From a phage: 64,000 nucleotides of DNA. The stretch is taken from NCBI GenBank assembly GCA_012549035.1, contig GCA_012549035.1_4805.1. One strand, 5' to 3'. Made by a program: the position numbers and the translations under genes. This document shows, one piece after another, positions 3,236 through 40,375 of the stretch (positions are counted from its first letter, which is position 1; each line of letters starts with the position of its first letter). The notes below the pieces were generated by a model. That model was not told where the DNA came from. It saw nothing but the letters and a program-made list of their open reading frames with translations, and ran no database searches.

Positions 3236-3652
3236 TTACCCCTTGTTTGGAGTCTCGCCGCTGAGGAATGGCGCGATTAATCGCATCGATTCGCCGATGA
3301 ATGCTGCAGCCATTTCGCCGCCAGCTTGTTCCCAGTAGCCTTCACGCTCGGCGTGAGTATCTGGGTTTATACCGTTCTCCATGAGGACTGCTTCGAAGAC
3401 TTCTTTAAGGTTTTCCCAGTCACCAAGATGGTTGTCAATTAGTGCACCAGTACTTAATGGGATTTCTTGGCCCACATCAAGCTCGACTTTTGCGAAGCTC
3501 AACACTTCCATCGTATACTCTGAACGAAAAGCAGGGTCTTTCGACATTGCAAATTCGACAAAGCGACGCTGAATATTCCAGCCTTCCATCGCAGTCATTT
3601 TGCTGATTTTAATTTCTACTGTACGACCAGTTTGTTTGTTGGTGATCTTCAT
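3236..3652 (-). CDS. hypothetical tail assembly protein (138 aa)
   Basis: ORF packed tightly immediately upstream of the tape-measure gene, same strand. Confidence 0.55.
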   Translation of the reverse strand: MKITNKQTGRTVEIKISKMTAMEGWNIQRRFVEFAMSKDPAFRSEYTMEVLSFAKVELDVGQEIPLSTGALIDNHLGDWENLKEVFEAVLMENGINPDTHAEREGYWEQAGGEMAAAFIGESMRLIAPFLSGETPNKG

Positions 3653-3653
3653 T

Positions 3654-4214
3654 TTATATTCCTACTGTTGATTTTATTTTATTATATAACGAACTCACAG
3701 TTGTAGTCAAACTGACTGGTTCTTTAATAGCAACACCATTTGATGATTCGTCTGCAGATTGTTTAGGGTCGAAGCTTCCTTGAATGCTAAATGACGTTTG
3801 CTCGAAGGTTATTACTATTGAGACTCCATTCAAGTTTTCTTCTGACTGGGTTATTTCAACGTCGGACATCGACATTTTACTGGCAATGATGCTTCGTGAA
3901 GTTATTGAAAATGTGACTTCGTCATCATCAAATGAATTTATGATATTTTCAATTGTAGACTGGTCATTGCAAATTACGTTTAACGCCATATGGGCTGGCA
4001 TTACAACCTTTGTCGCCTGTAAATTGCTTACTGATGACGTGCTTGATACTTCGACAACCTGCATGGCTGTACCAGCAAGAGGGAATTGAGTTGTTTCTGC
4101 TGGGGATGTTATTTCTGCAGAAACAGGTGAAAGCCTTGTCCAGACAGGAAGACCTGTTGACTCATTCGTTATGGTCAAAGATTGACCAGAAAGCAGAATC
4201 GAAACGAAGTCCAT
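3654..4214 (-). CDS. hypothetical tail protein (186 aa)
   Basis: ORF in tail module, 1-nt spacing to neighbours. Confidence 0.55.
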   Translation of the reverse strand: MDFVSILLSGQSLTITNESTGLPVWTRLSPVSAEITSPAETTQFPLAGTAMQVVEVSSTSSVSNLQATKVVMPAHMALNVICNDQSTIENIINSFDDDEVTFSITSRSIIASKMSMSDVEITQSEENLNGVSIVITFEQTSFSIQGSFDPKQSADESSNGVAIKEPVSLTTTVSSLYNKIKSTVGI

Positions 4215-14066: not shown

Positions 14067-14346
14067 GATACGGATGATACGGATAAAATGAGGCGTATTT
14101 TTATCCGTATCGGTGTATAAGCCGCGCTATCACTGGTGTGCTACGGATGATACGGATGATACGGATACTTTTCATATATAAGAGTTTATAAAAAAAAATA
14201 AAATTAAATTATATATATAATTTTAAATTAATTTATTTGAATTCCTATATAGTACGGCGGCAACGCGTATCATCCGTATCATCCGTAAGATTCTTTTGAA
14301 AACAATAACTTACTTGATACGTATGATACGTCATTATACGTATAAA
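14067..14346. repeat. iteron-rich intergenic region A (9-bp GATGATACG-type units, AT-rich core)
   Basis: TACGGATGA x3 tandem at 14143-14168; GATACGGATGATACGGATA at 14067-14085; inverted copies TATCATCCG x2 at 14265-14293; AT-rich palindromic core 14170-14250. Confidence 0.7.
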
Positions 14347-19496: not shown

Positions 19497-20957
19497 TTAA
19501 AGGTTAGAGAAGAAGCCGGATGCTGCAACAATTGGTTTCATCAATGCCATGATTGCGGCGTCCGCTTTGTTAGGCGATTTAACTCCACGCTTTGCCATAT
19601 CCTTTTTCGATTCAACTTTGAACTTACCAAGAACAGACGTGTCTTTGCGCGGCGCTGACATCTCAAAAAGAAACGTCTCAATTTCTTCCGCAGACCAAGC
19701 AGGAATCCCAAGTTCTGGAATGCCGTCTGTGTCGATGGAAATCAACTCATCGGTCGGATATACGGCTTGCCCTGTCGCATACTCATATGTCTTTCTGAAT
19801 CGTTCGGCAATCTCAGTCCATTTTTGCGCTTTTATGTTTGCGAAATGGTCTTTATTGAGTATTTCAACGTGTGGTAACTCAAGGAAAACGTCATCAGGAT
19901 CATCAACAGCACCTTGCGCGTTGAACGCATTAAATTCGATTCTTGGGAATGTTGGATTTTCATGTATTGCATACTCATTGAGCTCATCAAATTTTGAACC
20001 AGCAAATGCACCGACACCGATGGCGTCATAGGTAATTGACGCGCCGAATGTCAATGCGTCTTTCCAAACTCCGCTTGCGGACTTAAGCAATTCATCTTCC
20101 AGACCTTCCCATGTCTTGATGCCACGTAATACGTTGCCTGTGACGAATGCAGTGGCGTTAAGGTCGTCGCCATCGTCCGCTACGTCAAAGCCTATACGGT
20201 TAGACCCTGACAAACTCCATCCCAGCGTAGGGTGCTTGTGGAGGTTAAGCGCAGCCTTAACGAATGCGCGGTTGATTACAGATTTGTCGCCGCCAGTCTT
20301 CGGCACGCCGCCATAAACGTGCTCTGCCTTTTTCGGGTCACGCTCGTACATGCCTGCAATAACGTCCAGCATTGTTTGCGACAAAAATGGATTGTCTTGC
20401 CAGTTTATCTTTTTAACAATGGCATTCTTCGGCGGTCGCATAACAAAGTTTTGGTAGACGAAATCGGCCTCTTCATCAGGGTTAAAGATGATCCATATTT
20501 CGGACCCTTCTTTACGGATTGTCGGCTCAATAATGTCCCACTGTTCTTCAGTAAGCGCGTGCGCTTCTTCCAGCCAAAGGACGTCAACACCTTCTGTTGA
20601 TTTAATTTCATCAACGTTACGTGCGATACCGTAAAATAGAAATTCAGATTTAGTTCTTTTATGTTCAATAGAGTTCTTTAATAAATTGAACTCATCTTTG
20701 AAATCAGAAATCTCTATTTTGTCTTTTAATAGAGTATATACAGATTCAGAAATCTTGTTCTGGAATTGTCGAACGCAAAGGAATTTTAATTTGAAGTTTG
20801 CCGCCAAATAAATAGCAAAACCAGCGGCATCGTGCGATTTGGAAGATGCACGACCGCCGTATATTACTTTGTATCGCGCTTTTGTCTTCCAGACTTCTTT
20901 TAAAGCAGGATTCAACTGGTACATGACTTTCCAATTATGTGTTAATATTTTATTCAT
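19497..20957 (-). CDS. terL: terminase large subunit
   Basis: 486 aa; N-terminal ATPase block KVIYGGRASSKSHDAAGF (Walker A-like) and overall large-terminase architecture. Confidence 0.85.
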   Translation of the reverse strand: MNKILTHNWKVMYQLNPALKEVWKTKARYKVIYGGRASSKSHDAAGFAIYLAANFKLKFLCVRQFQNKISESVYTLLKDKIEISDFKDEFNLLKNSIEHKRTKSEFLFYGIARNVDEIKSTEGVDVLWLEEAHALTEEQWDIIEPTIRKEGSEIWIIFNPDEEADFVYQNFVMRPPKNAIVKKINWQDNPFLSQTMLDVIAGMYERDPKKAEHVYGGVPKTGGDKSVINRAFVKAALNLHKHPTLGWSLSGSNRIGFDVADDGDDLNATAFVTGNVLRGIKTWEGLEDELLKSASGVWKDALTFGASITYDAIGVGAFAGSKFDELNEYAIHENPTFPRIEFNAFNAQGAVDDPDDVFLELPHVEILNKDHFANIKAQKWTEIAERFRKTYEYATGQAVYPTDELISIDTDGIPELGIPAWSAEEIETFLFEMSAPRKDTSVLGKFKVESKKDMAKRGVKSPNKADAAIMALMKPIVAASGFFSNL

Positions 20958-25648: not shown

Positions 25649-26044
25649 ATGATCATCGATATTGAAAAGGCTCTCAAGCGCGAATTGACACCAGGTGCGA
25701 CTCCTGGAGAAGAAGCCTACTACCGACCGAAAGCGCAACGCACCAATGAGATTCCGGTTGTGAAGCGGACAGTGAATAAGAACGGTCAGCGGTCGCGACC
25801 ACGCTCTATCCGGTCCGGTGAAAGGCTGAAAACGATTCGCCAGTGTCTACAACGTCTCGAAATAATGGGTTGTCGCGCTTATATCGACCCTGATGGAAAG
25901 GTCATGGTGAGAATTGGCAATAGTACACAGCTACAAGACGGATTGCCCTGCGGCGAATCCAGACCCATAGCCAAGACCGACCGTGTGGCTACTGGTCGCG
26001 AGGTTGAGGAAAGTTGGTTGGGTGCTTTCTTATTAAAATATTGA
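25649..26044 (+). CDS. hypothetical basic protein (131 aa)
   Basis: In-frame ATG at 25649 (MIIDIEK) within track ORF 25577..26044. Confidence 0.5.
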   Translation: MIIDIEKALKRELTPGATPGEEAYYRPKAQRTNEIPVVKRTVNKNGQRSRPRSIRSGERLKTIRQCLQRLEIMGCRAYIDPDGKVMVRIGNSTQLQDGLPCGESRPIAKTDRVATGREVEESWLGAFLLKY

Positions 26045-26051
26045 GGTTAAT

Positions 26052-26246
26052 ATGAATAAAAATGAATCAGTAGCGTTCTTGCAATGGCTGGAAGGCGTGG
26101 TGGAGTATTACGCACCAAAAGACCGCTTCATCTTTCAAGGTAAAAGCTTCAAGCGCAAAGGACAAGCCCAGAAAGCAGCGCGTAAGTACTGGAAGGAAGT
26201 TTATTCAGATTTCTTTCAGCACATCGGCTCAGTTGGTATCGATTGA
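26052..26246 (+). CDS. hypothetical protein (64 aa)
   Basis: RBS TGAGG upstream of ATG. Confidence 0.5.
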   Translation: MNKNESVAFLQWLEGVVEYYAPKDRFIFQGKSFKRKGQAQKAARKYWKEVYSDFFQHIGSVGID

Positions 26247-26341
26247 TGAATCCAATCGTTACAATTAACAAACCGATTTGAATGCCGCGCTATGCGGCTT
26301 TATTATAATTCAAGTTAATCACCCTCATGAAAGGTAATGAT

Positions 26342-26722
26342 ATGTCAAATAAGAATGATTCTATTCACAATACATATACTAAAGGCAGCGGCACTGCTTT
26401 TGGTTCAAGTATCAAACTTGACGCTCCATCTTGCGATTCTGATGGATTGGAAGTCGGCAACCGCGACTTAACATGGGTTTTACGTCGCCAATCCGATTTA
26501 GAAGAGAAGCTGGAAAATATTGAGCGTTCTCTCGAAAGTTTGCGCGACCAGCTTTTTGGCTGTTCTGGAGATGAGTCAAAACCTGGACCATATGCAGCCA
26601 ATCGTGGTTTGATTGATAATATGCTTGCTATTACCGCTCGATCAATTGGTAAGACTGTGTCCATTGAATCATTGATCAGCCAGATTGCGGATGGCTTTGG
26701 TGATGCCCATAAGAGTGAATAG
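26342..26722 (+). CDS. hypothetical protein (126 aa)
   Basis: ATG 26342 preferred over 26327 (AAAGG upstream); TATAAT-like box at 26304-26309. Confidence 0.5.
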   Translation: MSNKNDSIHNTYTKGSGTAFGSSIKLDAPSCDSDGLEVGNRDLTWVLRRQSDLEEKLENIERSLESLRDQLFGCSGDESKPGPYAANRGLIDNMLAITARSIGKTVSIESLISQIADGFGDAHKSE

Positions 26723-26751
26723 TGGGTGTTGCTGATTTAACCGTGAATCGT

Positions 26752-26778
26752 GGGTCGCTGTTGCGGCCCTTTCTTTTG
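26752..26778 (+). terminator. intrinsic terminator
   Basis: GGGTCGC-tgtt-GCGGCCC stem (one G-U pair) followed by TTTCTTTTG. Confidence 0.6.
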
Positions 26779-26995
26779 CCTGCCGCGCAGGAGTGTACTG
26801 CAAAATTCCTGTGGGTACAAAATAGTACGGTACTGTCTAGGGCTTTTTCTTTGAAAAGTTAGTGGACCAAATGTGTCGTATTTTGATTAGTGTACCGCAA
26901 ATTTCATCAAGTACCAAAACGCACCAAAAGACCCATGCCATAAAAACCACACGAACGCAATAATCAATCGCCGTTACAGTTTCCAGCGTTACAAT

Positions 26996-27056
26996 TCGAA
27001 AGCGAATGATTCGACGCATAATAATATGAAGCACAATGATTCGAAAGCGAATGATT
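26996..27056. repeat. direct repeat ATTCGAAAGCGAATGATT x2
   Basis: Two copies about 44 bp apart inside the 600-bp non-coding gap. Confidence 0.6.
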
Positions 27057-27373
27057 GTGTGTAGGATAATATCGGTGGGGATTATTCGAGATGCATGTAA
27101 TTTCGCATGCGTACTATTTTCGGGCGAAGGGTCGGCATATTCCTCGTTTTAGTTCGGAACGAAGGGAAAGTTTTGCGCCTTTATAAAACAACGACTTACG
27201 CGACCCGCCCTAACGGTCCGATATAGGTGTCTATATAAAACAAGGACTTACTCGATGTTCTCCATTTAACGTAATACCTGTTATGCGAACTAAGGCGCAT
27301 CTCGATGAAGATTATGCGACGAAGAAGGGAAGGATAAAGGAGTTTTTTGCGGAGAAGCGCATCGAGATAGGGA

Positions 27374-27401
27374 CGAAGAAAAGCCGCGACTAAGCGCGGC
27401 C
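27374..27401 (-). terminator. intrinsic terminator (minus strand)
   Basis: On minus strand GCCGCG-cttagt-CGCGGC followed by TTTTCTTCG, 26 nt after stop of 27427..27636. Confidence 0.55.
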
Positions 27402-27426
27402 TATTAGTAACGGTGGGTGATTATAA

Positions 27427-27636
27427 TTAAAGGAATAATCCGGCGCGTTTAATTTGCCCAAGGACGTTATCGCGACGGCGACGCATAACCGCGTATTTAA
27501 CTTCTTCTTCGTATCCCCAGCCGCCGATGGATAACATCGCGTTCATATTATCGCATAATTCCTTAAGCTCGCGAAACATATCGATTACGGCGGTGCGATG
27601 GGCGCGCGCGTTAAGAGAGTTATTCATATTAGTCAT
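27427..27636 (-). CDS. hypothetical protein (69 aa)
   Basis: RBS AAGGAG; second gene of a two-gene minus-strand operon; CpG-rich codon usage. Confidence 0.55.
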   Translation of the reverse strand: MTNMNNSLNARAHRTAVIDMFRELKELCDNMNAMLSIGGWGYEEEVKYAVMRRRRDNVLGQIKRAGLFL

Positions 27637-27646
27637 TTTCTTCTCC

Positions 27647-27937
27647 TTAAAGGCTTACGATTTTAAAGTAAGTTACTTCGCCGCCGAGTTGCGGTACAGC
27701 GATATATTCGCCGCCGATTTCGGTGATCGTATAAACGAATCCGTTAATCGTTACGCGGTAGGATACGATGTCCTCGTCGCGATACTTGTAAAGGTCGAGG
27801 AAGTTGATCGGCTCATAAATAGACTCGATAATCGCGTCGACGTTAGAGAGATAAACGCTCTCTAAGGTTTCGCCAAATACGTTAGAGTTTTCGGAAGTTT
27901 CGACGCGAGCGGCGCGGATAGCGGATAAAGTAATCAT
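27647..27937 (-). CDS. hypothetical protein (96 aa)
   Basis: RBS AGGAG 6 nt upstream of ATG; preceded by promoter cassette and leader hairpin. Confidence 0.6.
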   Translation of the reverse strand: MITLSAIRAARVETSENSNVFGETLESVYLSNVDAIIESIYEPINFLDLYKYRDEDIVSYRVTINGFVYTITEIGGEYIAVPQLGGEVTYFKIVSL

Positions 27938-27961
27938 AATATTCTCCTAGTTAGTCGGGAG

Positions 27962-27982
27962 GGTAGCGACCTATTCGCTACC
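27962..27982 (-). promoter_or_regulatory. conserved 5'-UTR hairpin (cassette copy 1)
   Basis: On minus strand GGTAGCGA-atagg-TCGCTACC flanked by GGGA...TCCC; covaries with copy at 28524..28544. Confidence 0.45.
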
Positions 27983-28004
27983 TCATCCCCTCTCGATATA
28001 AAAC

Positions 28005-28033
28005 ATTATAGCCTTAGTGTACGAATAAGTAAA
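28005..28033 (-). promoter_or_regulatory. promoter cassette copy 1 (TTTACT-N17-TATAAT)
   Basis: Minus-strand GCTTTACTTATTCGTACACTAAGGCTATAATGTTTTATATCGAGAGGGG; near-identical to the 28473 and 28403 copies. Confidence 0.5.
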
Positions 28034-28043
28034 GCACTTTTCG

Positions 28044-28346
28044 TTATTTTGCGATAAAATATTTGTAAGCCTTATCGCCTTCTACGTCGATATACTCGAC
28101 GATAATTAATGCTTCGCCGCGCGGCGTAACCGTCTCGATAAGGGTAACGGCTTCGTCGTCGGTCTTCGCGAAGCGGATGGCGCTACGTTCGGCGTACTTG
28201 ATATCGTCGAAGGAAAGACCGACGAAGGCGACCGCGCGGACCTTAATGGCGCTAGATTCTAGTTCGGCGTTAACGGCGGCGATAAGAGAGCGAACGGTTA
28301 AACGGTCTTCGTCGTAAGTAAGGATGGAAGAGATTAAAGTGGTCAT
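28044..28346 (-). CDS. hypothetical protein (100 aa)
   Basis: ATG at 28346 with GGGAG-TTTTATT-ATG arrangement identical to neighbouring genes; track N-terminal TTG extension rejected. Confidence 0.55.
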   Translation of the reverse strand: MTTLISSILTYDEDRLTVRSLIAAVNAELESSAIKVRAVAFVGLSFDDIKYAERSAIRFAKTDDEAVTLIETVTPRGEALIIVEYIDVEGDKAYKYFIAK

Positions 28347-28402
28347 AATAAAACTCCCGATGCTAGTGGAAGGAAGGGCCATCGCCCGTCTCGATATAAA
28401 CA

Positions 28403-28430
28403 AGTATACGTGAGTGTACGAAGAAGTAAA
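28403..28430 (-). promoter_or_regulatory. promoter cassette copy 3 (TTTACT-N16-TATACT)
   Basis: Minus-strand CTTTACTTCTTCGTACACTCACGTATACTTGTTTATATCGAGACGGG. Confidence 0.45.
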
Positions 28431-28472
28431 GAAAAAGATAAATAATTTATCTCATTTTTATCGAAAAAGTGC

Positions 28473-28500
28473 TTTACTTTTTTCTACACTATATTATAAT
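28473..28500 (+). promoter_or_regulatory. promoter cassette copy 2 (TTTACT-N16-TATAAT)
   Basis: GCTTTACTTTTTTCTACACTATATTATAATGTACTCATATCGGGACGGG upstream of gene 28570. Confidence 0.5.
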
Positions 28501-28523
28501 GTACTCATATCGGGACGGGATGA

Positions 28524-28544
28524 GTTGACGAATAGGTCGTTAAC
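28524..28544 (+). promoter_or_regulatory. conserved 5'-UTR hairpin (cassette copy 2)
   Basis: GTTGACGA-atagg-TCGTTAAC with compensatory changes relative to the 27962 copy; followed by CTCCC-AAACT-AGGAG-ATG. Confidence 0.45.
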
Positions 28545-28569
28545 ACTGCTCCCAAACTAGGAGTTTATT

Positions 28570-29208
28570 ATGGCCAGTTTGAATCGTTTCTCCACCAGCG
28601 GCGACGTAATCGCAACCAAGACAGCCGACCTCGTTGCATTCTATAACGAAAATTCAGGCTCAAAGCCGATTAAAAAATTCGCGGACCGCCGGACCGCCGA
28701 GACTCGCGTAATCGCGTTAATCGAGTCCTTAAACGCGCTCGATGAGCCGTCCAACGAATCGCCCATCCCAGACGTGAAGGCGCGTGAGGAAGTGTCCAGC
28801 GATGTAAAAACGCATAAGGCGCGTGCGGTCGTTAAAAAGGCTGAGCCGACCCAGGAAGAACTCGACGCGATGAGTGATGAAGAGTATGAAGCCTTCGTTA
28901 AGAGCAGCCTTAATAGCGCTCCGGTTGGCGCTCCGGTTGGCGCGGATAAAATTGCCAGCCCTTCCCATCGCCGTTCGAATAGCGAAGGTATTGCAAAAAG
29001 TTGGGATAACAAGGAAGTGGCGCAAAAGCGTCTCACCCGTAACGGCGTTATGGTCGAGGGTGTAGGCGAGTTCAAATCGGTCCGCGTAGCGTTCGCCGCG
29101 CTGGGATTACCGGATAGCAAGCACATTCGCTTCCGCATGAAGCTTAAAGAAGCTGGACGCTTGAACTTCGAGTTCGGCAACAAGTCCTACACCTTCCAGA
29201 TTATCTAA
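28570..29208 (+). CDS. hypothetical protein (212 aa)
   Basis: RBS AGGAG; CpG-rich codon usage; Ala/Pro-rich linker APVGAPVGA; terminator directly downstream. Confidence 0.65.
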   Translation: MASLNRFSTSGDVIATKTADLVAFYNENSGSKPIKKFADRRTAETRVIALIESLNALDEPSNESPIPDVKAREEVSSDVKTHKARAVVKKAEPTQEELDAMSDEEYEAFVKSSLNSAPVGAPVGADKIASPSHRRSNSEGIAKSWDNKEVAQKRLTRNGVMVEGVGEFKSVRVAFAALGLPDSKHIRFRMKLKEAGRLNFEFGNKSYTFQII

Positions 29209-29215
29209 TCGAATG

Positions 29216-29237
29216 GCGGCCCTTCGGGGTCGCTTTT
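29216..29237 (+). terminator. intrinsic terminator
   Basis: GCGGCCC-ttcg-GGGTCGC followed by TTTT; mirror image of the stem at 26752. Confidence 0.6.
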
Positions 29238-29258
29238 CATAGTGCAAATTGGTGGCTT

Positions 29259-29522
29259 ATGAATACGCTTATTCTCATCGCTACGTTGTCCATCGGAAGT
29301 GGTCGCACCTTATCCCTTTATGATCATAGTGCAAATTGCGCTTACCCAACGCGCGTTGCGGCGATAGTTAATAGTGCAAATCGAATGCTATTCGAGACTT
29401 GTTGGCGGGTCGATAACGAGAAAGGGCGCATCGTCTTAGGTTATAGTGCAAATCTGCTGGTGGAGTCGTTCGACTGGACGGCGGAAGGTCGTAAATTGTT
29501 ACGTAAAGTGACTAAAAGATGA
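29259..29522 (+). CDS. possible small protein (87 aa) overlapping repeat array
   Basis: ORF with island-type codon usage; three in-frame motif copies each encoding SAN; may be non-coding. Confidence 0.35.
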   Translation: MNTLILIATLSIGSGRTLSLYDHSANCAYPTRVAAIVNSANRMLFETCWRVDNEKGRIVLGYSANLLVESFDWTAEGRKLLRKVTKR

Positions 29523-29583
29523 CTTATAATAATACACTTTCTAACGCGTTTATGGCTGCAGCCTTCCCCGTCGTATTACCGAT

Positions 29584-29624
29584 GGCCCTAGAAGTGGAGA
29601 AAATGTGTTCTAGGGCCGTTTTAT
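29584..29624 (+). terminator. terminator-like inverted repeat
   Basis: GGCCCTAGAA-N14-TTCTAGGGCC followed by GTTTTAT. Confidence 0.45.
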
Positions 29625-29636
29625 AGTGCAAATTGG

Positions 29637-30110
29637 CTAGTGGCGGGAGAATTGCTCACCCTCTTTGGCCGCCTCTCCAAAATCCTTGTAGAAATCGTCC
29701 ATGGAACGGCCCATTTTACTATTGCCATTCTCATCAATCATCGTGATGCCGTAGATGATATTCAGTTCACGAATGGCATTAAGCTTGGCTGATGCCGCGA
29801 CTTCTGGATCACGCACAAGCTTCACTAAATTGTGAATGGAACTCTTTACACTCCACAATTCCTTCAATGGCATCTCTTCCATACGCTTTTTGTAGCGCAT
29901 CTTGTAGTACGGATTGCGTTGCGTGCAGAGGATTCGCTGGCCAGTGTAGTTATCGGTCGCAACCTCCATGCCAAATACTAGTGCAAAAGCTGCGCGCATG
30001 TCATGGCCCTGAATAACAAGGTCAATGAACTCATCGAATAATGCCTGATTATGCTCTGCAAATCGCGGGTCTTCAAAGTCTTCAGGCATTGCTACATAAT
30101 CTTGACTCAT
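29637..30110 (-). CDS. hypothetical protein (157 aa), possible small terminase-like DNA-binding protein
   Basis: ATG at 30110 lies inside a motif copy; track TTG extension to 30305 rejected; weak resemblance to small-terminase N-terminal helix pattern, identity uncertain. Confidence 0.55.
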   Translation of the reverse strand: MSQDYVAMPEDFEDPRFAEHNQALFDEFIDLVIQGHDMRAAFALVFGMEVATDNYTGQRILCTQRNPYYKMRYKKRMEEMPLKELWSVKSSIHNLVKLVRDPEVAASAKLNAIRELNIIYGITMIDENGNSKMGRSMDDFYKDFGEAAKEGEQFSRH

Positions 30111-30338
30111 AGTGCAAATCCCATAGTGCAAATTAATAGTGTGAATTATACAATGATTGAACATTATATTCAAGTGCAGATTGATGTTCAAATTGGCTGT
30201 AAACGTACATAAATCATAGTGCTGAATGAATATCGGACCGTGGTGCGTGGTGTACTGTTTGATACGTATAAAAGAAATCCATCCCTTTCGCCGCTTGTTA
30301 TGCAAATCAATGACTTAGCCGCTGCTGGCTGGTTGAAG

Positions 30339-30612
30339 CGTATCATGACGTATCATCCGTATTGCCGCAAGTCTTTGTTTTTACTTATATCTTACGGATA
30401 ATACGTTAAATATATAAATTAACATAAGTATGAGGATGTAGAAAAAAATTAATTTAAATTAATTCAAAATGGAGTTAATTAATTTTTGAAATAATTCTGG
30501 TTACAATAAGGAAAAATGGCGTATCATCCGTATCATCCGTAAGATTCAGTGTACAAATCCAGGCGCGGCGCACCCTAGCGCCATGATACGGATAAAAACC
30601 TATCCGTAAGAG
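30339..30612. repeat. iteron-rich intergenic region B
   Basis: CGTATCAT(G/C) tandem units at 30339-30364 and 30519-30547; 29-bp segment GCGTATCATCCGTATCATCCGTAAGATTC identical to 14265-14293; AT-rich palindromes at 30410-30490; AATCCAGGCGCGGCGC x2. Confidence 0.7.
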
Positions 30613-30840
30613 TGTACGCTTCAAGCAAAGAATCCAGGCGCGGCGCGGCTTTCGCCACCACACACCACGGTTCACTCTCCAAAATCCGCACACTAAATTC
30701 CAAAATCCAATGCTCATACTCCAAAAATAAATCAAAATTTCCATTTTATTTATTATTTTCATCCACAATATCCTAAATTCTATCCGTATCAACCATGCCT
30801 CAACCCACCACTATTCACGCCACTCACTTCAAAATTTCCA

Positions 30841-30873
30841 TCGAAAACAACAAAAGGTCGCATAAAGCGACCC
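30841..30873 (-). terminator. intrinsic terminator ending the early operon
   Basis: On minus strand GGTCGC-tttat-GCGACC followed by TTTTGTTGTTTT, about 50 nt after stop of 30925..31464. Confidence 0.6.
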
Positions 30874-30924
30874 ATTGCACACATTCCATTATTCAAAACA
30901 CGTAAACGAGTGTTCTTTTATCCA

Positions 30925-31464
30925 CTATAATTTAGGCATCAATCCCTTTTCCGTTCTCCTTTTTATCTCGTCTTCTATCATTTTATTGGTTACTCTATAC
31001 CCAATCCTCTCCAATTCCAGCAATACTTCCTTTTGGTATTTTCTTATTTTTACGATGTCGACCGTATCCCTCCAATAAGATAATACCTTCTTAATGACTG
31101 ACTTTTCCATTTTATATCTGGCTGTCGTCATATATTTCATTTTGAAAATAGAGTTGATGGCATCCGTCTTTAACCATTCCTTTCTTAATTCAGGATGATC
31201 ATCCCAAAGAGCAATGGCGAACTCCTGCGGACTTTTGCACCTGCTTTGAAGCTCCTTTATGTAGTCGACCGTTTTCACTTTTCTATCTAAACGCTCGCGG
31301 CAAACGGTGCACTCTTCCTTGAGCAACCAATCGGCCTTCTTGTCAATTTGCAAAGTTGAATTACCATCCCTTTTATACCTGCCGCAAATGCTTATGCCTT
31401 CATCTTTTAAGAAGTAATGCAACTCTTTAGAGTATTTCGCTTTACGCCAAAAGCCTCCCATCAC
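30925..31464 (-). CDS. hypothetical Cys-rich protein (179 aa)
   Basis: Last gene of minus-strand early operon; CxxC-like pairs (CGRY...CTVC). Confidence 0.55.
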   Translation of the reverse strand: MMGGFWRKAKYSKELHYFLKDEGISICGRYKRDGNSTLQIDKKADWLLKEECTVCRERLDRKVKTVDYIKELQSRCKSPQEFAIALWDDHPELRKEWLKTDAINSIFKMKYMTTARYKMEKSVIKKVLSYWRDTVDIVKIRKYQKEVLLELERIGYRVTNKMIEDEIKRRTEKGLMPKL

Positions 31465-38057: not shown

Positions 38058-38705
38058 TTATCCTGTGGCCTGCATATTGCGTACATACTTCTGCTCTAAT
38101 GAATAGATGAAGTCGGCGACAGTCAATCCCTTCGTGTGCCATTCATACATGGTGAAGCCTGTATTCAGGAAATAGCCGCGCACCTTGTCCATCGCTTCAG
38201 CTTCCTCCATTGAAGCCATCAGCGCGGCGACGTTGTCATAAGAAGGCACAAATCCCTTCTTGCGTAGCGCATTGCGCAAATCTTTAGTTCTGAAGCCAAT
38301 CTTGCAAGGGTCATCGCGGCCCGTGGATGATGCAACCTTTGGAAGAGCAAGGAACTCTTTGAGGAACATTGCAATGTTCAAGTCGCCTGCATCATCAAGC
38401 TTCTGGATTCGGTTGCGACCGCGACCCTTGAATTCACTCGCACGAGGGTGAGCGCCAAAACAGTGCGCCCCTTCCAGTTTAGGGTCAATGATCATCACAT
38501 CTTTCCCAATGCGCAGCTCTACGTAGTAAAGATAAGACTCATCGACAAGCTTTGTGCGCTTGCAAGTGATTGAGTCCTTATCATAACCAAAGCCGCGCAA
38601 CACGGTTGAGATCATTCGGTTCATTTCTTCGCCGTGAACGTCACTTTCTTTGTTCAGTTCACCAAGATGTTGAAAGAATTTAGCGATGTTGATTGCTTTA
38701 TTCAT
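38058..38705 (-). CDS. hypothetical protein (215 aa)
   Basis: 1-nt overlap with helicase gene stop. Confidence 0.55.
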   Translation of the reverse strand: MNKAINIAKFFQHLGELNKESDVHGEEMNRMISTVLRGFGYDKDSITCKRTKLVDESYLYYVELRIGKDVMIIDPKLEGAHCFGAHPRASEFKGRGRNRIQKLDDAGDLNIAMFLKEFLALPKVASSTGRDDPCKIGFRTKDLRNALRKKGFVPSYDNVAALMASMEEAEAMDKVRGYFLNTGFTMYEWHTKGLTVADFIYSLEQKYVRNMQATG

Positions 38706-40375
38706 CAGAATTCATCCTTATCTCTTCCCAAAGAACGTTTACGCTCAATAACCTTCTTCAAGAATTCAATATCTTCAGGGTCAGACTCATCGCGGATAAG
38801 ATACGCTAAGATGGTCATCAAATCAGAAATGTATTCTCCTGCTTCATTCTTAATCAGCGGCGTAAAGTACCCGCGCTGGTTGCGATAGGTTGCAGGCTCA
38901 AAACCAAGCTTCGACATGTGCGGCGCAAGGGTACGAGAGAAAGGCGACTTGCCACACTTCGCTCTGAATCCCATAGCAATAGCGCCACTGGTGATGTGCC
39001 AGCGTCCGCTGTGATGTCGGTCATAAGGCGCGGTGATGACGACTTCAACAAGGTCGTTGTCGACCATCTCATCACGGATAACGCCGCGCGCACGTTCCAT
39101 TTCGTTCTTGCTGAACTCAGTAAGCATGCGAGATGTTTCACCAACAAACGCGTTATAGCCTGCTTCGCCGTGCTTCTCCATCCACGCAGCGCACTCAGCC
39201 ATAAGCTGCCAAACGTCTTCTTTCAAAGTGGAAAGGTCGGCTTGGAAGTCCTTAGACCAGTTCGGTTGCCCGTCCTTGTCAGCGAGTTGGCCAACAAAGA
39301 TAGGGTACACACGACGGTTGCCCGTGTCGTCACGCTGCATGCCTGCGTATTCGTTGCCGTCCATGATCGCAATCCACTGGCGTGGTTTAACCTGCGTATC
39401 TTCAAATTTGAAGTCCAGGTCATCTTCCGTCTTAGTCAGGAATGCTTTCATGTTTTCGATGTCGGCCTTTTTAAAGCCTGTCATCTCGCCAACGTTCGCG
39501 ATAATTGAGCGACCCGTGATAGCTCGCAAGAACGGGTTGAAGTTTTGCGCGGCTAAGTTCAACGGAATCGGTGTTGCGTGGCGGTCGTTCATAATAGCTT
39601 CGCAAAGCAGCTTGCTAAAATAACTCTTCCCTGCGTTCTGGCCGCCGATGAGCGCAATGGAGATTGGCGCTTGACAGCCAGGGTTGGTCAGGCGGTTGTA
39701 GAGCGATAGCCAAAAATACACACCGATTTGTCGGTTTAACTCTGTATCGAACGGTCGGAATAGCTCGATAAGGTATTTCTCGATGCGCGCAGTACCGTCC
39801 CATTCAGGCAGCTTCTTGTAGAAGAAGTCCATCAGGTCGTCGCGCTGATAACGCATGGCCCATTCCTTATAGGATTGAGCGACCTGACGTGAGTTTGGGT
39901 TGGACAACCCTGCTGCGTCGACAGCGGCAACTATCTCTGTGACTTCCAAGGTACGGTCAGTGAATGTTTCGCCGCGATGGTCGACTAAGCGCCCACGAAA
40001 AGTATCTTTGTGAGGGAATGGAACAACGCCACTTCCCTTATCAAACAACGCGTCGAACACCGCATAACGGTTCATGTCACTCGTCCGGTCTGCCTGTAGA
40101 ACGAAGTCATCTTTAGTCGGCTTGTAGTGAGGGAACTTGATTACCTGAAGTGAGGCGAGCAAGCGTGCTCTTTCAACCAAGTCTTCTTCACCGTAGCATT
40201 CCATGCGCTCTGAATCTTTTTCAACGGCTTTATGTTGAAGGCTGATTTTAGCTCTGGTGCCTTGCTGCTCTGCTGCCTGCATTTCTTCCGAAACACCTGC
40301 ATCTTGAATTTCGTCAAAGATTGCACCAAATTCATCACCTGTATCCTCTGGAAGATTGTCATTATTAATTGACAT
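38705..40375 (-). CDS. SF3-type NTPase / helicase (VirE / D5-like primase-associated)
   Basis: 556 aa; Walker A IALIGGQNAGKS and downstream architecture typical of phage/plasmid primase C-terminal helicase domains. Confidence 0.7.
   Translation of the reverse strand: MSINNDNLPEDTGDEFGAIFDEIQDAGVSEEMQAAEQQGTRAKISLQHKAVEKDSERMECYGEEDLVERARLLASLQVIKFPHYKPTKDDFVLQADRTSDMNRYAVFDALFDKGSGVVPFPHKDTFRGRLVDHRGETFTDRTLEVTEIVAAVDAAGLSNPNSRQVAQSYKEWAMRYQRDDLMDFFYKKLPEWDGTARIEKYLIELFRPFDTELNRQIGVYFWLSLYNRLTNPGCQAPISIALIGGQNAGKSYFSKLLCEAIMNDRHATPIPLNLAAQNFNPFLRAITGRSIIANVGEMTGFKKADIENMKAFLTKTEDDLDFKFEDTQVKPRQWIAIMDGNEYAGMQRDDTGNRRVYPIFVGQLADKDGQPNWSKDFQADLSTLKEDVWQLMAECAAWMEKHGEAGYNAFVGETSRMLTEFSKNEMERARGVIRDEMVDNDLVEVVITAPYDRHHSGRWHITSGAIAMGFRAKCGKSPFSRTLAPHMSKLGFEPATYRNQRGYFTPLIKNEAGEYISDLMTILAYLIRDESDPEDIEFLKKVIERKRSLGRDKDEF

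Follow-up and report, generated by a model that had tools for sequence, protein, structure and literature searches.

A conserved non-coding gap at the inferred inner boundary of a 3.5-kb direct terminal repeat in a Wifcevirus phage, with a candidate end-cutting signal

In a phage DNA stretch of 64,000 nucleotides (hereafter the window), the gap at positions 26779-27373 is probably a non-coding region lying across the inner boundary of a direct terminal repeat (DTR) of ~3.5 kb, and is a candidate cis-acting site for end cutting and packaging. Within this gap, we posit, at roughly even odds of being right, that the element TTAGTGTAC-N24-AAAWCGCACCA^ and an array of TGATT-type motifs together form a candidate cis signal that directs the terminase's inner cut of the 3.5-kb DTR, and that this signal belongs to enterobacterial PB1-like myoviruses (Wifcevirus, Kylevirus and Myosmarvirus) and is absent from the Pseudomonas genus Pbunavirus. 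A preliminary description, made from the letters of the window, had suggested that the gap could encode a non-coding RNA or serve as an origin or recombination site. Among these guesses "recombination site" came closest. The evidence below favors conserved non-coding DNA with a likely cis-acting role, and does not favor an RNA or an origin.

Taxonomically, the source genome falls in the genus Wifcevirus and represents an E. coli myophage, with the 2.2 kb around the gap being 92–96% identical to 29 GenBank records. Members of Wifcevirus are myophages of E. coli O157 and Shigella, and the Pseudomonas PB1-like phages are their distant kin. The plus strand of the window is the reverse complement of the conventional Wifcevirus orientation, and the features that the argument draws on are as follows.

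19497-20957, minus strand: large terminase subunit (TerL) gene (Pfam Terminase_3, E = 3e-37)
26752-26778, plus strand: intrinsic terminator, GGGTCGCTGTTGCGGCCC followed by a T-run, with a 7-bp stem of which 6 are GC pairs; closes the tail-fibre operon
26779-26926, no strand: unique-side part of the gap, 148 bp outside the repeat; GTAC-dense, with two terminus-box copies
26792-26830, plus strand: distal copy of the ~38-nt terminus box, AGTGTACTGCAAAATTCCTGTGGGTACAAAATAGTACGG; assigned to this repeat family by by-eye comparison with the proximal copy
26884-26926, plus strand: proximal terminus box, TGATTAGTGTAC-N24-AAAACGCACCA; abuts the boundary
26926/26927, no strand: putative terminus of the packaged DNA (the inner, or right, DTR boundary), placed by homology to relatives' records
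26927-27373, no strand: non-coding repeat end, the last 447 bp of the DTR (one virion end plus the internal copy)
26927-30470, no strand: whole DTR as inferred, 3,544 bp
26994-27038 and 27039-27083, plus strand: the two units of a 45-bp tandem duplication that contains the 18-nt repeat; promoter-like hexamers
27091-27112, plus strand: hairpin/palindrome pointed out in the preliminary description; unconserved
27179-27255, plus strand: two 25-nt direct repeats (CTWTATAAAACAASGACTTAC..), 52 bp apart; most conserved inner segment
27381-27402, minus strand: intrinsic terminator that closes the minus-strand operon inside the repeat; invariant in all relatives
29637-30110, minus strand: small terminase subunit (TerS) gene, inside the repeat and 360 bp from the other terminus (match to PDB 7UXE, E = 9e-33)

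The gap and the inner boundary of the terminal repeat

We infer that the boundary of the DTR, which would be a physical end of the virion chromosome, falls within the gap, with the terminus of this phage placed by homology to the relatives that are 92–96% identical to it over 2.2 kb. A block homologous to 26927-30470 stands at both ends of the WFH, WFC, Ro157lw and SP13 records. On the inner side, the last base of the WFH, Ro157lw and SP13 records is the one homologous to window position 26927, and the repeat_region of Mansfield (MK903282), a PhageTerm call, stops there too. The inner boundary at 26926/26927 is therefore common to four of the five related records that define a DTR, and two of these four are documented PhageTerm calls (Ro157lw and Mansfield) from different laboratories. 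The right end of the fifth, WFC, lies 81 bp further out, at window position 26846. On the outer side, all five records, WFC included, begin at the base homologous to 30470. Some of the relatives' records may have been trimmed by analogy to earlier ones. Published DTR lengths are 3,533 bp for Ro157lw (by PhageTerm; PMC6454146), 3,673 bp for Mansfield (by PhageTerm; PMC6753283), and ~3.7 kb for WFC and WFH (PMC6563267). At the cut itself, the window reads ...GTACCAAAACGCACCA on the unique side and AAAGACCCATGCC... on the repeat side.

The position of the boundary is thus already implicit or annotated in the relatives' records: Mansfield, Ro157lw, WFH and SP13 belong to the same genus, their boundary is identical to the base, and their gap is homologous. 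These records and papers give the repeat length only and leave the gap unannotated bar a few automatic small ORFs, and no sequence element at the boundary is described in the relatives' papers (PMC6563267, PMC6454146, PMC6753283). Neither the conserved box at the terminus nor the array of motifs that flanks it, both treated below, appears to have been described in the literature. As for the terminase genes, the structure matched by TerS (PDB 7UXE) is that of the phage E217 TerS (PMC9611059), and an ORF at 38705-40375 that had been considered for TerL turned out to be a VapE-like primase/helicase instead. In the Logan assemblies, 21 contigs with the neighboring 96-aa protein run through the gap or break elsewhere, and hence provide no independent evidence on the terminus.

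Evolutionarily, the gap is better conserved than its surroundings. It was found at full length in all 29 related records, at 87–98% identity, with no annotated feature in most, indeed nearly all, of them. Nucleotide diversity in a 16-genome alignment was 0.044 for the gap versus 0.082 for the adjacent 131-aa CDS, that is, about half the variation of the adjacent gene, and was 0.035 for the unique-side part (26779-26926). The gap is, judging by these diversities, under purifying selection, and conservation of the gap in related phages, which the preliminary description had put forward as a check, was thereby borne out. Diversity within the gap was lowest at 26915-26990 and 27140-27290. In the stretch 26920-26975, nearly invariant among 25 distinct sequences, one position varies widely and another rarely, and a single base is inserted in one genome. 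The most variable segment, 26990-27125, contains the 18-nt repeat and the palindrome, the two features given most emphasis in the preliminary description.

The small genes that flank the gap differ between isolates, with coverage of the 2.2-kb query down to 71–90% in many records. Wifcevirus homology ends right past the minus-strand terminator (region 27403-27640). About half of the relatives lack the 69-aa "transcriptional regulator" gene found there (27427-27636), and the conserved gap thus has an exchangeable gene cassette as its neighbor. On the opposite side, the heptamer GTGGGTC is tandemly expanded to ~5 copies in Mansfield (3783-3817, corresponding to about window 26749), just before the plus-strand terminator, and smaller insertions are found at this position in Bas99, SP13 and F13.

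Structurally, all of the features that the preliminary description had listed in the gap were recovered. The convergent terminators that bound it are real (26752-26778 on the plus strand and 27402-27381 on the minus strand), and the former is also annotated in the WFH and WFC records. The direct repeat ATTCGAAAGCGAATGATT is exact (2 matches versus 0.17 expected) and occupies 26994-27011 and 27039-27056, its first copy starting 2 nt before the 26996 given originally. It is contained in the 45-bp tandem duplication, in which AATGATT occurs at 27005, 27035 and 27050, and of which phage Bas100 is missing exactly one 45-bp unit. The palindrome GCATGTAATTTCGCATGC was located at 27093-27110, with its 5' arm changed from GCATG to GTCGG in 9 of 16 relatives, and the paired segments were found as described, GCGCATCTCGAT at 27295 and GCGCATCGAGAT at 27357. 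The two 25-nt repeats (CTWTATAAAACAASGACTTAC..) compare with 0.05 matches expected. The GTAC-rich stretches also proved genuine: six GTAC sites fall within the 148 nt of 26779-26926, which makes this the densest of 3,193 sampled 148-nt stretches of the 64-kb window, and the richness is explained by a second, diverged copy of the terminus box 97 bp upstream of the first. Three local repeat motifs were also considered as phage-wide promoters, and each was confined to the gap in a genome-wide search.

The terminus box and its flanking motifs across genera

The box itself, TTAGTGTAC-N24-AAAACGCACCA, lies on the unique side, and its end coincides exactly with the DTR boundary. Its proximal copy is invariant in 25 distinct Wifcevirus sequences bar 3 scattered variable positions, and its distal copy, 97 bp upstream, is diverged. 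For comparison beyond the genus, we used Pantoea phage Kyle, Serratia phage MyoSmar and Serratia phage MTx, three phages that represent two other genera and are distant relatives; MyoSmar, for instance, has only ~17% nucleotide identity to ECML-117 (PMC6753285). Their DTRs are of similar length (3,603 bp in Kyle, 3,559 bp in MyoSmar and 3,566 bp in MTx), and their inner boundary likewise falls within a gap of a few hundred bp that is non-coding bar one small annotated ORF spanning Kyle's boundary. At the other end, the small-terminase gene lies ~350–390 bp from the terminus in Wifcevirus, Kyle, MyoSmar and MTx.

Aligned on their independently determined boundaries, the sequences that lead up to the cut are TTGATTAGTGTACCG-CAAATTTCATCAAGTACCAAAACGCACCA in Wifcevirus, with AGTGTAC at -38, CTGATTAGTGTACTGTGAAATTGGACCAGGTACTAAATCGCGGTC in Kyle, with AGTGTAC at -39, and AATTTAGTGTACGTGCCAATCCATTTTGTGTGAAATCGCACCA in MyoSmar, with AGTGTAC at -38. 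CGCACCA directly adjoins the boundary in Wifcevirus and MyoSmar. MTx has the same AAATCGCACCA, with its PhageTerm/annotated boundary 14 nt beyond the homologous CGCACCA, and both MyoSmar and MTx have a second AGTGTAC upstream as well. We estimate at ~3×10⁻⁸ (as (3 × 4⁻⁷) squared) the probability that two further genera would by chance have a given 7-mer within 1 nt of this offset. Local alignment of Wifcevirus and Kyle paired positions -47 to -4 in both (z = 8.6 versus dinucleotide shuffles), and the 1-nt indel in this alignment argues against coding conservation.

Pbunavirus Ab27 was considered as a further carrier, and in its first 7 kb both a comparable gap and the box were absent, which indicates that the element does not extend beyond the enterobacterial branch. 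Scans of IMG/VR with the conserved 28-mer, the two flanking proteins and the box motif as queries returned no new distant relatives, the matches being copies of known Wifcevirus and Kyle genomes plus five consistent with chance.

Short motifs that are repeated on both sides of the cut and conserved in relatives accompany the box. In Kyle, all three TGATTAG sites in 6.5 kb lie near its terminus, at -44, +14 and +59. In our phage, the single TGATTAG of the 64-kb window is at -43. Variants of the TGATT type are found beyond it at +34 (minus strand), +80, +110 and +125, and those at +80, +110 and +125 fall inside the region of the 18-nt repeat. Given these TGATT-type motifs around the cut, the simplest reading of the 18-nt repeat makes it one component of an array of short, putative protein-binding sites there, and not an RNA or an iteron.

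Inverted repeats are also centered close to both ends. A 10-nt inverted repeat at 26883-26892/26958-26967 (TTGATTAGTG / CAATAATCAA) is centered at 26925, which is 1.5 nt away from the predicted end, and a 17-nt inverted repeat at 30389-30405/30529-30545 has its center at 30467, within 4 nt of the other end. The counterpart motifs in Kyle are direct, not inverted, and we therefore regard these terminus-centered inverted repeats as suggestive and give them little weight.

The other terminus (30470) presents a different picture, since comparison of the left terminus across genera revealed no box shared at the cut, and the sole shared element was a GC-rich hairpin ~80 nt outside it. This hairpin, CCAGGCGCGGCGCACCCTAGCGCCA, is at 30556-30580 in the window, with a partial second copy 75 nt further on (30631-30650), and its counterpart in Serratia phage MyoSmar is CCAGTCGCGGCGCACCATAGAGCCA (~3630-3660). 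The other chromosome end, between 30470 and 30471, also lies in a gap without a credible gene, here of ~800 bp (30110-30925), in which CGTATCATCCGTA occurs three times. Elsewhere in the window, a stretch of 67–70 nt at 14272-14340 is ~76% identical to the outer-end sequence of the DTR (its first 131 nt; homologous to ~30340-30406).

Inside the DTR, seven plus-strand copies of TNATAGTGCAAAT span 29236-30146, over an 87-aa ORF (29259-29522) and the small-terminase gene to its upstream region, and look like an operator or binding-site array. The DTR also has strong sigma-70-like promoters at 28005-28033 (minus strand), 28403-28430 (minus strand) and 28473-28500 (plus strand), of the form TTTACT-N16/17-TATAAT or TATACT. 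The three are near-identical and are predicted to drive divergent small genes. The two on the minus strand have the spacer motif GTACACT in common with the terminus boxes, as well as a common leader, TGTTT(T)ATATCGAGA.

Alternative readings of the gap

If the gap were coding, it would have to encode one or more very small proteins, of the kind annotated in the records of Mansfield (39 aa), kaset and SP13, and we find this highly improbable. As the preliminary description had held, no credible ORF is present: the ORFs between the terminators are of 31–65 aa only, none has a coding signature, and none combines an intact frame across the 16 aligned genomes with a bias toward third-position changes. 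Two of them, 27091-27186 and 27107-27226, are indeed intact in 15 and 14 of the 16 genomes, but chance keeps short ORFs intact at ~95% identity, and their variable sites lack the third-position excess of a real gene (6/4/5 and 4/5/5 by codon position, versus 25/24/45 in the neighboring gene); a convincing ribosome-binding site is also absent at 27107. Another ORF, 27283-27393, carries a frameshift in 14 of the 16 genomes. The gap is empty in most curated records and in the gene calls of all ten independent Logan assemblies, and the frameshifted gene that might have been hidden here was not found in the relatives. Transcription without translation is conceivable from the 45-bp repeats, in which sigma-70-like matches (TCGAAA-N18-AATAAT at 26996-27025 and TCGAAA-N18-GATAAT at 27041-27070) could start a small plus-strand RNA at ~27032 or 27077 that would end at the terminator-like hairpin 27091-27112. 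The -10-like hexamer of the second unit is retained in most relatives, yet the promoters match at only 9 of 12 positions, the 5' arm of the hairpin is broken in those 9 of 16 relatives, and the candidate lies in the most variable part of the gap, where Bas100 is without one whole unit. Searches at the RNA level were equally unfavorable to the proposal of a non-coding RNA. The covariance-model scan of 26000-28200 against Rfam (E up to 10) found no family at threshold, the best hit (E = 0.47) being the terminator itself and the next (1.8) lying outside the gap, both far below gathering scores. RNAalifold on the 16 genomes gave compensatory changes in 0 of 150 predicted pairs and a covariation term of +0.16, with power limited at ~95% identity, and single-sequence folding was not unusually stable on either strand (z = -1.54 and -1.57). 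We consider such an RNA unlikely.

The repeats might instead be the iterons of a replication origin, given that several direct repeats sit in conserved non-coding DNA whose GC content is slightly under the window average (0.43 versus 0.46). Against this, no DnaA box was found at ≤1 mismatch in 26779-27373, GC skew is positive to either side and does not turn at the gap, a marked AT-rich unwinding stretch and an adjacent initiator gene are both absent, and the motifs occur nowhere else in the window, which together make the origin suggested initially distinctly unlikely. We hold in similarly low regard a reading by analogy with phage T5, in which the repeat-rich untranslated DTR end would act as an injection stop signal, pausing DNA entry so that the genes of the repeat are expressed first. 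In T5, the region of the injection stop signal, Repeat Region 3 of the left terminal repeat, is a large untranslated region of repeats and palindromes that straddles the inner end of the repeat (bioRxiv 10.1101/866236). The layout here matches it, being untranslated, rich in repeats and palindromes, located mostly in the terminal repeat and overrunning into unique DNA, and the region is better conserved than the neighboring repeat ORFs, as in T5 (bioRxiv 10.1101/866236). Both phages also have a long terminal repeat with promoter-driven small genes, which in our case would be served by the three near-identical sigma-70-like promoters. However, the T5 region measures 1.2 kb versus 0.6 kb here, the paired DnaA boxes (TTWTNCACA) that define it are absent from 26779-27373 at ≤1 mismatch, and the proteins encoded in the repeat have no match to the T5 A1 or A2 families, nor any informative PHROG or Pfam match except for the regulator family and TerS; moreover, ours is a myovirus, for which two-step transfer is unreported. 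These readings are partly compatible with a DTR boundary in the gap, and not all of them are mutually exclusive.

Proposed mechanism, significance and known systems

Mechanistically, the preferred reading, that of a cis-acting site at the DTR boundary, could operate as follows. Replication concatemers would contain one repeat copy per junction, and the terminase (TerS, 29637-30110, and TerL, 19497-20957) or a partner nuclease would recognize the box and the flanking motif array and place a cut or nick at CGCACCA^A. The repeat would then be duplicated by strand-displacement synthesis between two boundary nicks, following the T7 model, while the two convergent terminators might shield the site from transcription. 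With regard to recognition, the TerS of E217 had no appreciable DNA binding in vitro (PMC9611059).

A box that abuts the cut in three genera is a concrete target for mutagenesis and biochemistry. If our proposal is true, the box would be, to our knowledge, the first defined sequence signal for making a long terminal repeat. The mechanism by which long terminal repeats are generated was called unknown by Liao et al., citing Casjens and Gilcrease 2009 (PMC6454146). A workable test system is available, since in vitro assembly of a Wifcevirus genome has been accomplished (PMC11074155). In practical terms, several Wifcevirus genomes are deposited as circular or arbitrarily opened records (PQ850605, PQ850618, PQ850631, PQ850608 and PV245935), and the box could serve to open or annotate such records at their physical ends. 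It also marks a region to spare when Wifcevirus phages are engineered for O157 detection or therapy.

Among known systems, the concatemer junction of phage T7 offers one comparison. For T7, duplication of the terminal repeat by strand displacement during packaging has been proposed, and the concatemer junction has pac sequences and short repeat arrays that flank the repeat. The likeness lies in exact, non-permuted ends, in a cut at the edge of the repeat that is flanked by short repeats, and in a single repeat copy per junction that must be duplicated. T7 differs in being a podovirus with its own RNA polymerase and in having a non-coding repeat of 160 bp, whereas the repeat here is 3.5 kb long, terS is one of its six genes, and there is no evident sequence similarity to T7. 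In SPP1 (pacL-pacC-pacR) and lambda (cosB-cosN), repeats bound by the small terminase flank the cut, and our phage resembles them in having short repeated motifs on each side of the cleavage point, with TerS binding putative in our case. SPP1 packages by headful and has permuted ends, and lambda has cohesive ends, whereas in the phage described here both ends are exact and 3.5 kb are duplicated.
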